The translations under genes were made by a program, and so were the position numbers. DNA of 64,000 nt, from contig CAVWCF010000001.1 of assembly GCA_963753435.1 (NCBI GenBank), forward strand, positions 1,120,001-1,184,000. The letters are read 5' to 3'. Below, in pieces: positions 45,243 through 52,682 of the stretch; position 1 is the first letter of the stretch, and each line of letters opens with the position of its first letter. This DNA is from an uncultured Actinomycetota bacterium. Its GTDB lineage: Bacteria; Actinomycetota; Actinomycetes; CAVWCF01. The notes below the pieces were generated by a model, which did not search any database, had not been told where the DNA came from, and saw only the letters and a program-made list of their open reading frames with translations.

Positions 45243-46142
45243 GTGAACCCCCGGGACGCCAGCCTCTTGGTGCTCCTGGCCGCGATCTTCGGTTCCTCGT
45301 TCCTGTTCATGCGGATCGCCGCGCCCGACGTCGGCCCGTTCATGGTGGCCGGTGTTCGCGTCGGCATCGCCGCTGTCGTACTGCTGGCCGTATTGGTGCT
45401 GCGGCGTGAGGTCGGCCGGCTCAAGGAGCACGCGCGTCCGCTGGCGATTGTCGGGCTGGTGTTCGTCGCCATCCCCTTCACGCTGATCTCCGCCGCCGAA
45501 CTGCACCTGACCGCTTCCCTGGCTTCGGTGCTGAACGCATTGGTCCCCGCCTGGGGAATCGTGGTCGCGGCGATCGCCTACTCCCAGCCGATAACCGCCA
45601 AACGGCTGCTGGGGGCGGCCAGCGGTCTGGTCGGCGTGGCGCTGGCCGTCGGGTTGGGCACCCTGGGGTGGTCCTGGGCGTCCGCGCTCGCGGTCGGGGC
45701 GATGCTGCTGGCGACACTCGGCTACGCGGTCGGCAGCGTCGCGGCGGCGCGACTGCTGTCCGGGGTGCCGCCGCAGGTGACGACGACCGGGTTGATGATC
45801 TCCGCGACCGCTTGGCTGGCGGTGCCGATGGCGCTCACCTGGCCGGACAGCCGACCGGAGACGGACACGATCTGGTCGCTCATCACCCTGGGCGTGCTGT
45901 GCACCGGGTTCGCGTTCGGGATCTTCTTCGTGCTGCTGGCGCGGATCGGGCCGGTGGGTTCGACGTCGGTGACGTTCCTGGCGCCGATCTTCGGGATCCT
46001 GTTCGGGGTTTTGTTCCTGTCGGAGCGGCTGAGCGCGGGCCTGTTCCTGGGCTTGCTGTTCGTGTTGACCGGCGTGGCACTGATCACGGACACCCGGTTG
46101 TCCACACTGCGCCCGACGGCCCGGCCGGGCGTTCCCGGCTAG
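45243..46142 (+). CDS. DMT/EamA family transporter
   Basis: LAAIFGSSFLFMRIA, LASVLNA, LGVLCTGFA, VTFLAPIFG; about 10 hydrophobic segments. Confidence 0.9.
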   Translation: MNPRDASLLVLLAAIFGSSFLFMRIAAPDVGPFMVAGVRVGIAAVVLLAVLVLRREVGRLKEHARPLAIVGLVFVAIPFTLISAAELHLTASLASVLNALVPAWGIVVAAIAYSQPITAKRLLGAASGLVGVALAVGLGTLGWSWASALAVGAMLLATLGYAVGSVAAARLLSGVPPQVTTTGLMISATAWLAVPMALTWPDSRPETDTIWSLITLGVLCTGFAFGIFFVLLARIGPVGSTSVTFLAPIFGILFGVLFLSERLSAGLFLGLLFVLTGVALITDTRLSTLRPTARPGVPG

Positions 46143-46254
46143 CGGGAGCGGGTCACCGGCGGCAGGACCGCTTCGATCACCCGCAGGCTCGCAACGTTCG
46201 GCAAGCCGAGCCGCGTGAGAGTGCCTCGCAGCGCCTCCGACTGCAACGTTGCGG

Positions 46255-46322
46255 CGGAAACGCAACATTCGGACCGGATCGCATCCCCTCCGGATGCGAT
46301 TGGGCTACACGGTTGCGTTCCG
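46255..46322. repeat. Bipartite palindrome downstream of the AbiEi-like gene
   Basis: CGCAAC-N14-GCATCC-N5-GGATGC-N14-GTTGCG. Confidence 0.8.
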
Positions 46323-46355
46323 ACCCTGGGGATTCACCAAGAAGCGGCCGGACAC

Positions 46356-47330
46356 TCACGCCGCCCGCCGCATCGCCGACCGGATCCGAGCGGCCACCGG
46401 CGCGAAGTCGCGATAGGCCTCATCCCAACCCCACCGGATCACGGTGAACCCCATGGCGCGCAAGTCGTCCTCACGCCGCTTCTCGGCATAAAGCACATCC
46501 GGGTCGTCGTACTTGCTGCGCCCATCGAACTCGCCGATGACGCCGCCGTCCCAAAGGAAGTCGACGCGGTACCGGCCTCGCGGCCCCTTGACCTCCACCT
46601 GCAGTTGCGGCGGTGGCAACCCCGAAGCCGCGATGGCCACCCGGCTCACGCTCTCCCCAGCGCTCTCGGCGAGCGGGCTGGCGAACGCGAAGGTTCGCCG
46701 GATCGCAGCGGCACCCTTGCCAAGCGGCTGGTCGCCCAACGAACTCCGCATAACTCGCTCGTGCAGTTGGTCCTGGCTGACGAGGCCGGCAGCGAGCAAC
46801 CCGTCAACGGTGACCACAGCCGCTCGAAGGTCACCCAGCCGGCTGACGTCGAGCGCTGTTCGCAGCGGGCTGGTCATGCGCACCGGACCATCGCTGACTT
46901 CGTCGTCGGCGAGATCGGCGCGGTGGAGGACTCGATACGGCTGACTGCGCACCCACGTGGGTCTCGTGACGTGTACTGGGCCGCCGTGGTGCAGCACCGG
47001 GACGCCGAGCAGTTCCGCGGCGCTGAAGTGGCTGGCCACCGTCGGGGCTCCGGTCACCAGCGTGACGGCGGCGATCCTGGCTCGGTGCCGCTCACCTAGG
47101 CCCCAGGCCACCCATTGGTCCGTCCCCACGTAGCCGCCGCGAACAATTGACGTCCAGTCGCCCCGGTCGACGTGCGACCTGACCTCCTTGGCGGTGAAGC
47201 CCACTGACATGGCCTGGCCGGCCGTAAACGCACCGAACTGCTGGGCGGCGATACCTGCGAGTAAGGGATCCACGCGCGCAGGCTGCCGCTGACGTGGGCT
47301 GAACGTTTCGGCCATCCACAGTCGCCGCAC
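46356..47330 (-). CDS. AbiEi-like N-terminal domain plus DUF559/Vsr-like PD-(D/E)XK domain protein
   Basis: QFGAFT...RGGY, SHFSAAELLG, TSPLRTALD, ESAGESVSR, GLPPPQLQ, RVDFLW, GEFDG..KY, EKRREDDLR, RWGW; start uncertain. Confidence 0.8.
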   Translation of the reverse strand: MRRLWMAETFSPRQRQPARVDPLLAGIAAQQFGAFTAGQAMSVGFTAKEVRSHVDRGDWTSIVRGGYVGTDQWVAWGLGERHRARIAAVTLVTGAPTVASHFSAAELLGVPVLHHGGPVHVTRPTWVRSQPYRVLHRADLADDEVSDGPVRMTSPLRTALDVSRLGDLRAAVVTVDGLLAAGLVSQDQLHERVMRSSLGDQPLGKGAAAIRRTFAFASPLAESAGESVSRVAIAASGLPPPQLQVEVKGPRGRYRVDFLWDGGVIGEFDGRSKYDDPDVLYAEKRREDDLRAMGFTVIRWGWDEAYRDFAPVAARIRSAMRRAA

Positions 47331-47342
47331 GACTCATGGGCC

Positions 47343-47402
47343 AAACGCAACATGCGCTCCGAGAAGCATCCGGGCCGGATGCGATCTGGGGCCGCCGTTG
47401 CG
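47343..47402. repeat. Bipartite palindrome upstream of the AbiEi-like gene
   Basis: Same CGCAAC-N14-GCATCC-N5-GGATGC-N14-GTTGCG layout, followed by two GGTCAGCGGKGAGGTTGCGA direct repeats (47403-47422, 47451-47470). Confidence 0.8.
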
Positions 47403-47488
47403 GGTCAGCGGTGAGGTTGCGAATCGGGGGCCGCGGGTCAGCGGGTGCCGGGTCAGCGGGGAGGTTGCGAGACGGGAGGCGTGCCCGG

Positions 47489-49132
47489 CTAGCGGGCGCG
47501 GGTGACTGGCGGCAGGACCGCTTCGATCACGCGCAATCCGTTGCCCACCGAGTCCGACAGGGCCTTGGCCAGCGACTCCGCGTCAGTCACCGCCGTGTGC
47601 GCCCACCCGGTTGCCGCGCACAGCCCGCCGATGTCGACGCCGTGCGGGGTGCCGAACAGCCGGTCGAACGCCGCCGCGTGCTGCGGTGCGCCCTGCTCCA
47701 GCAGCTTGAACAGCCCGCCGCCGGCGTTGTTGGACACAACCACGACCAGGTCGGGCCTCGGCTCGTCGGGGCCGATCGCCAGGCCGGCGGCGTCGTGCAG
47801 GAACGCCACGTCGCCGACGTAGGCGGCTGCCGGTCCCCCGCCGCGGGCCTGCCAGGACAGGGCCGCGCCGACGGCCGTGGACGTGGTGCCGTCGATCCCG
47901 GCCGCGCCCCGGTTGGCGACGACCGTGACGCCGTCACGCAACTGCGCCCAGGCCAGGTCCCGCACCGGCAGTGACGAGGCCGCCACGAGCAGCGAGCCAG
48001 CCGGCAGTGCAGCCATCACTTCGGTGGCAACGATGCGTCCGTCCCACTCGTCCAGCGAATACCGCTCGGCGCGGGCGGCGTCCGCCTCCCGCCAGGCGTT
48101 CAGCCAGGCGTCGTCGTGCGGGTGGTGGTCGCCGGGGTGCGGCACCGCGGCGTGCACACGCGACGCCAGCCGGGGCGCGTCCGGCCACCAGGGGCTCGGG
48201 GAGGCGATCTCCACGGACACACCGGGTTCGCGCATCAACCGCTGCACCGACCGCCACAGCGTCGGACGGCCCACCACGATGATCCGGTCCGGGCGGTTGG
48301 CCGACAGCCAGCGGTGGTCGTCGATGAGCAGTTGTCCCAGGCGCAGTGCGTTCGGTCCGGTGCGCGCGTTGCCGCACGGTTCGGCGATCACCGGCCAGCC
48401 GCGGCCTTCGGCGAGCAGCACGGCCGCCTGACCCCACGCGGGCGGGCAGTCGCCGACGACGACCAGGGTGCGTTCGGGCCGCGGGTCGACCGCCGGGGGT
48501 TCGGCGATCGGCGCGGAGTCCACGACCGTCCAGCGGGCGCCGCCGTCGCGGCCGTCCAAGGATTCGATCCAGTCGCCGGAGTCCGGCACCAACGGCTCGC
48601 GGAACGGCAGGTTCAGGTGCACCGGCCCGGGGTCCAGGGTGCGAGTGCCGCGCGCGGCCGCCAGGGTCCGGCAGACCAGCGAGCGCCAGTACGCGACCGA
48701 CCCGACGCGCTCCTCCGGCACACCGACCTCGTGGAAGAACCGCACCTCCGAGCCGAACAGCTGCAACTGGTCCACGGTCTGGTTGGCGCCGGCGCTGCGC
48801 AGTTCCGGGGGCCGGTCGGCGGTCATGGCGATGATCGGCACCTCGGCGTAGGAGGCCTCGGTGATGGCCGGGTGCAGGTTGGCCGCAGCGGTGCCGGAGG
48901 TGGTGACGACGGGGACCGGGGTGTCGGACAACTTCGCCAGACCCAGGGCGGTGAAGGCGGCGGCGCGTTCATCCAGGCGCACGTGCAGACGCAGCCGTCC
49001 GGCCTTGTCGGCGTCGTGCAGGGCGTAGGCGATTGGGGCCGAGCGCGACCCCGGCGCGATGACGGCCTCGCGGACCCCGCCGCGGATGAGTTCGTCGACG
49101 AGGACGCGGGCCATGGCGGTGGCTCCGTTCAC
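47489..49132 (-). CDS. menD: SEPHCHC synthase
   Basis: PGSRSAP, DERAAAF, TSGTAAANL, TADRPPEL, NRGAAGIDG, GDVAFLHD. Confidence 0.96.
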   Translation of the reverse strand: MNGATAMARVLVDELIRGGVREAVIAPGSRSAPIAYALHDADKAGRLRLHVRLDERAAAFTALGLAKLSDTPVPVVTTSGTAAANLHPAITEASYAEVPIIAMTADRPPELRSAGANQTVDQLQLFGSEVRFFHEVGVPEERVGSVAYWRSLVCRTLAAARGTRTLDPGPVHLNLPFREPLVPDSGDWIESLDGRDGGARWTVVDSAPIAEPPAVDPRPERTLVVVGDCPPAWGQAAVLLAEGRGWPVIAEPCGNARTGPNALRLGQLLIDDHRWLSANRPDRIIVVGRPTLWRSVQRLMREPGVSVEIASPSPWWPDAPRLASRVHAAVPHPGDHHPHDDAWLNAWREADAARAERYSLDEWDGRIVATEVMAALPAGSLLVAASSLPVRDLAWAQLRDGVTVVANRGAAGIDGTTSTAVGAALSWQARGGGPAAAYVGDVAFLHDAAGLAIGPDEPRPDLVVVVSNNAGGGLFKLLEQGAPQHAAAFDRLFGTPHGVDIGGLCAATGWAHTAVTDAESLAKALSDSVGNGLRVIEAVLPPVTRAR

Positions 49133-51587: not shown

Positions 51588-51866
51588 ATGGCCAAGACCG
51601 CCCGCCTTGAGGTGCGCCTGACCTCGGAGCTGAAGGCGCAGATCGAATCCCTGGCAGCCGAGCAGGGCGCGACGGCGAGCGACTTCGTTCGATCCGTCAT
51701 CGAGGAGCGGCTGGAGGAGTTGCTACAGCGCTCGCAGCGATACACGTTCGTCTCGCCGGAGTACTTCGACTGGCTGATGCGCTGGCTGGACGAGCCACCG
51801 GAACCCCTGCCGCCGACCATGCGCCGCGCGATGGAACGCTGGCGGCAGAACAACCCCGCCGACTGA
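51588..51866 (+). CDS. DUF1778-like RHH antitoxin (TacA/AtaR type)
   Basis: KTARLEVRLT..LK..IE..A...G...SDFV; LDEPPEP; directly upstream of a GNAT gene. Confidence 0.8.
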   Translation: MAKTARLEVRLTSELKAQIESLAAEQGATASDFVRSVIEERLEELLQRSQRYTFVSPEYFDWLMRWLDEPPEPLPPTMRRAMERWRQNNPAD

Positions 51867-51869
51867 CGG

Positions 51870-52349
51870 GTGGCGACGACCAGTCCGCTGCGTCCCGATT
51901 GCGTGCTGCGGGGCTTCGATTGCGGCGTACCCGACCTGAACACTTGGCTGGTTGCGCATGCCGAAAGATCCGAGCGCGCCCGACAGAGCCGGACGTTCGT
52001 CGCTGAGTCCGGCGGCAGAGTCGTGGGCTACTACGCCCTTGCCGCCCATGCAGTCGCTGCCAGCGACCTCCCTGCTCGGTGGCAGCGAGGGGCGCCGCGA
52101 AGCGTCCCCGCCGTGCTGTTGGCGAAGCTGGCGGTAGACCTCTCAGCGCAGGGCCATGGTCTTGGCGCGGACTTGGTCGTCGATGCGTTTCAGCGAGTCC
52201 TGTCGGCCGCCGAACAGGTCGGTACTCGCGTGCTGGTCGTGGACGCCATCGACGACTCCGCGAAGAACTTCTACTTGCGGCTCGGCTTCGTCCGCACCTC
52301 ATCTTCGCAGCGCCTTATGCAGAAGCTGAGTTGGGCGGCTCAGCGCTAG
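51870..52349 (+). CDS. GNAT-family toxin (TacT/AtaT type)
   Basis: FDCGVPDLNTWL, VVGYYAL, PAVLLAKLAVD, QGHGLG, VVDAID..AKNFY..GF. Confidence 0.85.
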   Translation: MATTSPLRPDCVLRGFDCGVPDLNTWLVAHAERSERARQSRTFVAESGGRVVGYYALAAHAVAASDLPARWQRGAPRSVPAVLLAKLAVDLSAQGHGLGADLVVDAFQRVLSAAEQVGTRVLVVDAIDDSAKNFYLRLGFVRTSSSQRLMQKLSWAAQR

Positions 52350-52361
52350 GCGACTAGAACA

Positions 52362-52682
52362 TCACCAGACCAGGCCGAGGGCGGCATGCAGGCCCTGCTC
52401 AACGCGGCGCATTGTGTCTCGCGAAACGGCGCCGGCCTCGCCGGTCACCTCGTGTCGGTAGACCACGCCGATCTCGTCACACAAGACCCGGCCCACTAGC
52501 GGGTCGAGTGGACCCAACTCGACGACAGAAGCGAGCGCGGGCTTTCGGCTCGTTGTGATCCGGACCGCGAGGAACGAGTCGAGAGCTCGATTGCGCTGAT
52601 TGCCCGATACGACCAGGAAGGGCTTGATCTCACCGACCTCGGCGATTCGGGCGAAGTAGCACCGCCCCCGAGTGGGGATCAC
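52362..52682 (-). CDS. PemK/MazF-family toxin
   Basis: RG..Y, KPFLVVSGNQRNRAL, VRITTS, MRRVEQGLHAALG. Confidence 0.82.
   Translation of the reverse strand: MIPTRGRCYFARIAEVGEIKPFLVVSGNQRNRALDSFLAVRITTSRKPALASVVELGPLDPLVGRVLCDEIGVVYRHEVTGEAGAVSRDTMRRVEQGLHAALGLVW

Follow-up and report, generated by a model that had tools for sequence, protein, structure and literature searches.

A one-gene cassette between phased palindromes in an uncultured actinobacterium probably marks an undescribed way for short repeats to spread

The 64,000-nucleotide stretch analysed here (the window) comes from an uncultured Actinomycetota genome of 2.17 Mb (98% complete, 68% G+C) and holds one gene between two copies of a 55-bp palindromic unit, a one-gene cassette. 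Together with the evenly spaced repeats of its relatives, this cassette probably marks an undescribed way for short repeats to spread, and its best reading is a REP/RAYT-like repeat-spreading system that would be built on an unrelated nuclease reading double-stranded DNA. The initial annotation of the window had proposed a REP-like layout, and this interpretation is supported with a changed model of recognition: flanking and dispersed copies are both present, whereas the units behave as phased double-stranded sites and not as REP-type stem-loops. The annotation had missed a 58-bp direct repeat of host DNA, a DnaA-box-like motif and the 19-bp period of the extra half-sites (Table 1).

Table 1. 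Features of the cassette and its surroundings (positions within the window)
Feature	Position	Strand	Remarks
EamA-family transporter, host neighbour	45243..46142	+	stop codon overlapping with CTAG in the left repeat copy
Left copy of the 58-bp host direct repeat	46128..46185		final eamA codons, the CTAG common to both stops, and the 15 terminal menD codons in a non-functional copy
Outermost left GCAAC word	46191..46195	+	in a related strain (run X1), followed by a different spacer
Second GCAAC word on the left	46243..46252		exactly 19 bp out from the left palindrome; itself inside a small palindrome
Downstream phased palindrome	46261..46317		GCAAC-N14-GCATCC-N5-GGATGC-N14-GTTGC
Gene, predicted AbiEi-fold and Vsr/EDxHD-type nuclease fusion	46356..47273	-	start position predicted
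-10-like hexamer CAGCCT, predicted	47280..47285	-	6 nt before the GTG, leaderless layout; putative function
DnaA-box-like motif	47315..47321		47 bp before the likely start
Upstream phased palindrome	47346..47402		fixed words and spacings as in the downstream one, spacer sequence differs
Two 20-bp direct repeats	47403..47470	+	47403-47422 and 47451-47470; each ends in a GTTGC word
Right copy of the 58-bp host direct repeat	47478..47535		contains the functional menD 3' end
menD-like TPP enzyme, host neighbour	47489..49132	-	menaquinone gene cluster, convergent on eamA

The name menD for the right-hand neighbour is one that we assume from its cluster context. The menaquinone region also holds, 4 kb from the cassette, a TacA-like RHH antitoxin gene with a GNAT partner (51588-52349) and, next to this pair, a PemK/MazF-like gene (52362-52682).

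The bipartite palindrome that had been noticed on both sides of the gene, CGCAAC-N14-GCATCC-N5-GGATGC-N14-GTTGCG, matches exactly at both places (57 bp each), the additional half-sites are all present (GCAAC at 46191 and 46243; GTTGC at 46248, 47416 and 47464), and the two 20-bp direct repeats are 19/20 identical. A genome-wide scan for stand-alone units, as had been suggested, was positive: the genome contains nine copies of the 55-bp unit, two flanking the gene and seven standing alone between ORFs, as placed by ORF and GC3 reading. Scored on 22 fixed positions, eight sites reached 20-22 matches and a ninth, degenerate one reached 18, against a background of at most 17; the same words at 11 other spacings gave no score above 18, and the chance expectation for an exact match is 1.2e-6 per genome. 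The exact unit had no match in the contigs of 185,579 other genomes, and a looser pattern of it was found in 0/400 genomes of the class. A metagenome scan for the palindrome returned one match (L116), a hairpin after a gene on an unrelated contig of lower G+C with no evident homologue, which was taken as chance.

Read toward the centre, the 18 arms have a consensus of GCAAC, then an unvarying C seven bases further in, a weakly conserved GAATC and finally GCA(T/C)C, with all other positions variable. A further GCAAC stands 19 or 20 bp outside the core in 9/18 arms, the extra words keep the 19-bp period on one side only, and at one stand-alone site three words are plainly tandem copies of a single 19-mer; beside the gene, the GTTGC word of the first 20-bp direct repeat lies 19 bp outside the upstream palindrome. 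In related strain X1 (one contig, depth 6.6), about 13 bp replace the 47 bp between the two outer left words, and one spacer base is changed with the words kept. For two stand-alone copies on a 19.6-kb stretch, contigs of four runs contained no piece or joint that would indicate whether these copies are polymorphic. In each unit, a short word is repeated in phase until the array meets its own mirror image, and the only stem is a short one at the centre. Outside the units, the genome-wide spectrum of GCAAC-GCAAC spacings is dominated by codon periodicity and therefore has no clear excess at 19 bp. One stand-alone repeat (L117; G000:C1 near 53254) lies directly before a CGAAC-N4-GTTCG motif that we take to resemble the actinobacterial LexA box, and the gene that follows is presumably an error-prone DnaE2 polymerase, judging from its N-terminus.

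The gene is single copy in the genome (tblastn and a DUF559 profile). Its frame is open to 47330 (324 aa), and translation likely starts at a leaderless GTG at 47273 (residue 20). Its earlier label, AbiEi/DUF559-like, agrees with PADLOC AbiEi matches to 4e-19 over residues 24-197, whereas the Pfam matches are weak and both under the cut-off (AbiEi_4, E 0.004; DUF559, E 0.001). In a model built from 120 sequences (mean pLDDT 93.7), residues 18-218 resemble the whole AbiEi antitoxin 6y8q (Z 10.6, rmsd 5.3, 177 residues; Foldseek and a second structural comparison), and residues 221-324 resemble 3hrl (Z 11.9), the catalytic domain of I-Bth0305I, 3r3p (Z 11.9, rmsd 2.5, 94 residues), and Vsr, 1cw0 (Z 9.6); a sequence search of the PDB returned only 3hrl (E 0.48). 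The predicted architecture is a complete AbiEi fold joined to a nuclease of Vsr/EDxHD type.

The PD-(D/E)XK fold expected from the RVDF and GEFDG motifs falls in the Vsr/DUF559 branch, and the acids of both motifs are invariant; DUF559 and Vsr have been described as one PD-(D/E)XK group (PMC3424549). Residues E226, D257, E267 and D269 (324-aa numbering) are invariant in 120 homologues, the set that provides the unbiased test of E267/D269, 80 of the loci having been collected by a GEFDGxxKY pattern; among the locus proteins, E226 and E267 occur in 109/109 and D257 and D269 in 108/109, with E in the remaining one. All the invariants of the nuclease domain are E226, D257, E267, D269, Y274, E283 and R286. 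From the aligned ranges, E226 and D257 are likely the counterparts of E170 and D196 of I-Bth0305I, as these are described (PMC3239194). No conserved His occurs among the invariant columns of the nuclease domain, so that the general-base His of Vsr and I-Bth0305I, mapped from aligned ranges (the EDxHD His of the latter included), would have no conserved counterpart here; therefore, nuclease activity is not assured. The middle domain (P0001 residues 78-202) also matches nucleotidyltransferase folds, with ANT(2'')-Ia at Z about 7, and keeps near-invariant S100, T153, T158, D161 and D176. Strain differences within the gene comprise five synonymous and six non-synonymous codons among the 12 of 21 differences listed, with no strong purifying signal.

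Homologues were found in 47/61 genomes searched, with up to 13 matches per genome, and the class relatives carrying them are Actinomycetes. We analysed 110 loci, 30 from the 61-genome search (this locus included) and 80 from a pattern search; L012 (G008) and L017 (G032) come from unpublished genomes, contribute at most two rows to pooled counts and carry no claim alone. Repeats at both ends are widespread among homologous genes: the two flanks share a repeat (score of at least 25) in 70/97 loci with enough flank, each locus with its own, compared with 0/97 windows shifted by 500 bp and 1/485 cross pairs, and 27/97 loci have no flank-shared repeat at score 25. Direct and inverted fits of the flanks are about equal, as palindromes would give. 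Shared 6-mers recur at a spacing of 19 in 20/95 loci and of 20 in 34/95 (controls, 1 and 2). Flanks are similar in 9/18 protein pairs above about 60% identity and in 30/4,735 below; descent alone explains this link, which was set aside as proof of recognition. Two Curtobacterium homologues (L040, L042), 36-37% identical, have nearly the same repeat design, AAACGCAAC-N14-GCAGCG-N6-mirror, with spacers that look complementary by eye; this design is possibly a convergent word.

The motif of this cassette is dispersed in its own genome, as had been expected, whereas the exact motif is not common to the homologues, each of which has its own. The flanking repeats of three homologues each occurred only in their own genome among five (12, 23 and 47 BLAST matches on both strands) and adjoin only one paralogue each among those listed. 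The paralogues are 33-46% identical, and the idea that each would have a cognate palindrome applies in genome G047 to 8/12 paralogue loci, with self scores of 45-71 and cross scores of at most 28; the other 4/12 have none at score 45. The G047 family has the design word-N14-word-N8-mirror with a period of 20. Presence of the gene is patchy within this genus, in which gene and repeat co-occur in a sample of five related genomes (G250 is 79% complete). Where the orthologue is present, G047 has 20 repeat copies and G099 (90% orthologue) has 10; G266, G202 and G250, in which only a short spacer without the cassette separates these convergent genes and the best homologues reach 38-44%, have 1, 0 and 0 copies, respectively.

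Nine of the 18 stand-alone copies in G047 were compared with the relatives. G099 has the same repeat at seven of these sites and is without it at two, and the three gene-less genomes never have this repeat family there. At five of the nine sites, gene-less genomes hold other palindromes, several of them by eye like the repeats of other G047 paralogues; at three, one gene-less genome has a bare spacer or overlapping stops; and at three, gene-less genomes hold 0.6-2.3 kb of extra host DNA. In one comparison (L142 against L187-L190), G047 has lost a gene of about 1.1 kb that all four relatives have; a repeat marks the junction, and the last codons of the gene lie beside it. Gene gain and loss are common at such junctions anyway, and only this deletion is a firm case; one compared site has an extra gene in G099 alone. 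The deleted gene looks by eye like a serine hydrolase. Another gene, in G202 (L164; G202:C292 12483-13253), is missing where G047 and G099 carry a repeat; it is presumably an NlpC/P60 hydrolase, with a leader that we take to resemble a c-di-AMP riboswitch. At L141 (G047:C1 near 2726081), three or four palindrome families are stacked between convergent genes, and in the empty relative G266 the stop codons overlap in this gap at CTAG, as those of eamA and menD would here. In two family relatives (L032 in G002 and L033 in G001), a different stand-alone palindrome follows directly after the menD stop, so that repeats have reached this gene end there as well.

The clean presence or absence of the cassette between convergent genes in that genus, the long terminal inverted repeats at many homologous loci and the up to 13 matches per genome would all fit an ordinary selfish insertion element with an unrecognised transposase. 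The palindromes would then be the ends of the element, and the stand-alone units would be derivatives of MITE type or solo ends that recombination had left behind. The ends of Tn7 and Mu and plasmid iterons are arrays of protein sites of about 19-22 bp, DnaA boxes lie near iterons, and TnsA is a PD-(D/E)XK nuclease. The end arrays here recall Tn7 and Mu, and the model has a TnsA fold match (Z 7.0); unlike in Tn7, Mu and iterons, there is no DDE transposase, ATPase or Rep gene and no fixed target duplication, the relatives being too diverged to resolve short ones. We nevertheless consider such an element improbable, since the gene is single copy here, the paralogues at about 33-46% identity are not young copies, and the family is nearly absent from plasmids (4/72,556 records) and phages (0/50,697). 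Its tree follows host lineage: in 80 proteins, the 60 labelled rows from 8 host groups require 9 changes, compared with at least 36 in 300 shuffles; since kin share labels, this is a lineage-bound history, not co-evolution.

The 58-bp direct repeat of host DNA that brackets the cassette bears on the same question. Its two copies are 91% identical, its CTAG is common to the stop codons of eamA and menD, and 75 bp lie between each copy and the nearest palindrome (46186-46260 and 47403-47477). Of the six differences, one of which is a base just outside the aligned repeat, five are synonymous when read in the own gene's frame, a pattern that modestly favours arrival from a related allele over neutral decay. 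Low-depth contigs of related strains differ by 3.5-6.7% near the cassette vs 0.3-2.2% in X1 pieces elsewhere, a weak hint that the tract may have recombined. An empty site was sought in metagenomes with a degenerate pattern for the menD end that is duplicated here, which had 0 matches, and in contigs of four runs, none of which joined the two sides of the cassette; in the two family relatives the gene order differs, menD facing another gene. The 58-bp repeat is therefore no more than a candidate insertion footprint. A long target duplication common to the family was rejected, as the host duplication occurs at this locus only among the loci screened, and neither this nor the single copy corresponds to an insertion sequence with MITEs.

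A DnaA-box-like core, a putative DnaA box, occurs upstream of the gene at 76/106 loci, downstream at 2 and in control windows at 1, in both orientations, and also at 10/12 paralogue loci of G047. Where the orientation is TGTGGA and enough sequence is available (n=28), an in-frame start follows 46-50 bp on in 24/28, often with a CANNNT hexamer between core and start. Several loci have two such cores 18-19 bp apart upstream, near the period of the repeat arrays. This motif at fixed spacing, the three stand-alone copies directly upstream of gene starts and the binding of inverted repeats with autoregulation described for AbiEi folds (PMC7319586) would suit a domesticated DNA-binding factor with a role in the host (regulation, chromosome organisation or replication-linked repair), for which the repeats would be operators spread by other means. 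However, a copy also lies downstream of the gene, the neighbours of the stand-alone copies have no evident common function, intergenic spots with one repeat family hold another in relatives, and the nuclease acids are invariant. Moreover, among the 80/97 loci with host context called on both sides, convergent contexts exceed divergent ones by 37 to 5 (38 are co-directional). A host factor of this kind is thus unlikely.

The central GCATCC-N5-GGATGC forms a short stem in 8/9 folded units, the repeats are placed after stop codons and between convergent genes, and Vsr-like folds include mismatch and RNA enzymes, all of which could speak for repeats that act, like REPs, as hairpins in RNA or single strands, whether to terminate transcription, to stabilise mRNA or to be the substrate of a structure-specific nuclease. 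We regard this as very unlikely, since the extra words keep their 19-bp period on one side only (9/18 arms), Rfam gave no match and the spacer arms do not covary in two families: in this genome, 6.0/14 spacer positions are complementary within copies vs 5.85 between copies (permutation p 0.42, 9 units), and in the G047 family 8.6 vs 8.8 (p 0.70, 19 units). On this ground, a long hairpin was rejected in both families. Finally, an orphan type IV (AbiE) antitoxin or toxin-antitoxin fusion with the palindromes as promoter operators only would agree with the PADLOC matches and the AbiEi fold, but it is largely refuted and hardly credible, because no AbiEii (PF08843) was matched either here, in a genome 98% complete, or in the two family relatives, no AbiEii nucleotidyltransferase occurs among 80 neighbour ORFs (varied housekeeping genes) of 40 loci picked by hand from 150 candidates, and the downstream and genome-wide repeats would be left unexplained.

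In layout and population behaviour, the proposed repeat-spreading system would work like a RAYT, and it likely binds like AbiEi and likely cuts like Vsr or I-Bth0305I. RAYT genes are described as flanked by REPs or TIRs (PMC3733652), as vertically inherited and absent from plasmids (10.1101/2021.07.10.451892), and their products as cutting folded single-stranded REPs via a phosphotyrosine link (PMC8266576). Like REPtrons, REPIN-RAYT systems and TIRtrons in these descriptions, a single-copy, lineage-bound gene has its cognate palindromes on either side here, and further copies of these lie scattered between genes, mostly behind gene ends, with several gene-repeat families per genome and near absence from plasmids. 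On the other hand, a RAYT is an HUH/Y1 enzyme acting on GTAG-tagged single-stranded hairpins, whereas an AbiEi and Vsr-type fusion is predicted here, the confident model being assigned along its whole length to folds other than an HUH/Y1 tyrosine transposase. Unlike REPs, the units lack arm covariation and a GTAG/CGTC tag (absent from the 18-arm consensus) and have words phased at 19-20 bp, and unlike in REPtrons a DnaA-box-like motif precedes the gene. The main texts of PMC3733652 and 10.1101/2021.07.10.451892 make no mention of the host phylum.

The predicted arrangement of a C-terminal Vsr-like catalytic fold behind an N-terminal DNA-binding region is also that of I-Bth0305I, which is described as a dimer on a partly symmetric site (PMC3239194), and the putative sites here are palindromic. 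I-Bth0305I is encoded by an intron in a phage and cuts the empty allele, whereas here no intron is evident and the putative sites flank the gene itself, which stands free between two genes without an Rfam match; an empty allele was not found in the four runs or the metagenome scan. With the AbiEi/Rv2827c type IV antitoxins, the protein shares the whole two-domain fold (residues 18-218), and AbiEi proteins are described as monomers that bind paired 23-bp inverted repeats at their own promoter (PMC7319586); unlike these, it has a fused nuclease, no AbiEii partner and repeats on both sides and genome-wide, and in place of a bicistronic AbiE operon its neighbours are the EamA and TPP enzyme genes. 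By its defining features, the system belongs to none of the RAYT, AbiE and IS groups. No published description of it was found in the literature searched, which took in few subscription journals and no supplementary repeat tables (e.g. those of PMC3733652); the proposed enzyme and recognition mode would be new, and the overall logic parallels that of REPtrons.

Starting from the observed co-occurrence of gene and repeat, from which we infer every later step, we think it rather probable that the nuclease binds phased duplex words and nicks them, and that host repair copies the repeat into gaps at gene ends. The predicted nuclease would bind and nick its own repeat family and spread copies to intergenic sites. 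One protomer per 19-bp unit would be held on double-stranded DNA by the winged-helix and middle domains of its AbiEi-like part. The protomers of an array would follow one another head-to-tail, two such arrays would face each other head-to-head in the middle, and the Vsr/EDxHD-type domain would nick at a fixed distance. PD-(D/E)XK enzymes hydrolyse DNA without a covalent protein-DNA link, and because this fold leaves none, it would be host break repair that fills the gap with a copy of the repeat or, rarely, of the whole cassette. Variable junctions would result, such as the 58-bp duplication here and the gene deletion under a repeat in a relative. The DnaA-box-like motif at a fixed distance from the leaderless start may tie expression to replication, and the upstream palindrome may autoregulate. 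In its fullest form the proposal is more tentative, at somewhat less than even confidence: a widespread actinobacterial class of repeat-spreading systems with no known transposase kin, in which an antitoxin-derived scaffold with a Vsr-type nuclease would polymerise on 19-20-bp words, be switched by DnaA with replication and insert a private palindrome, and at times itself, where DNA is broken at gene ends, with loss or duplication of host DNA in the process.

CGTC REPs are described as lacking a dedicated transposase (PMC3733652), and the system addresses the open question of how short palindromic repeats originate and spread in bacteria that have no RAYT partner. With one particular enzyme and its repeat, for which the putative catalytic residues and the site can be named, this question can be put to the test. 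If the protein does not move DNA, it would be a new variant of AbiEi-type regulator. Otherwise, the system would be one more cause for genes being lost or duplicated at gene ends, and an actinobacterial family that is very common and now carries the label 'AbiEi antitoxin' or 'DUF559' would have a function. The way in which a nuclease scaffold comes to change its specificity could be studied in hundreds of natural protein-word pairs, and if each protein indeed has its own word, the family would be a natural library of reprogrammed site-specific nucleases.
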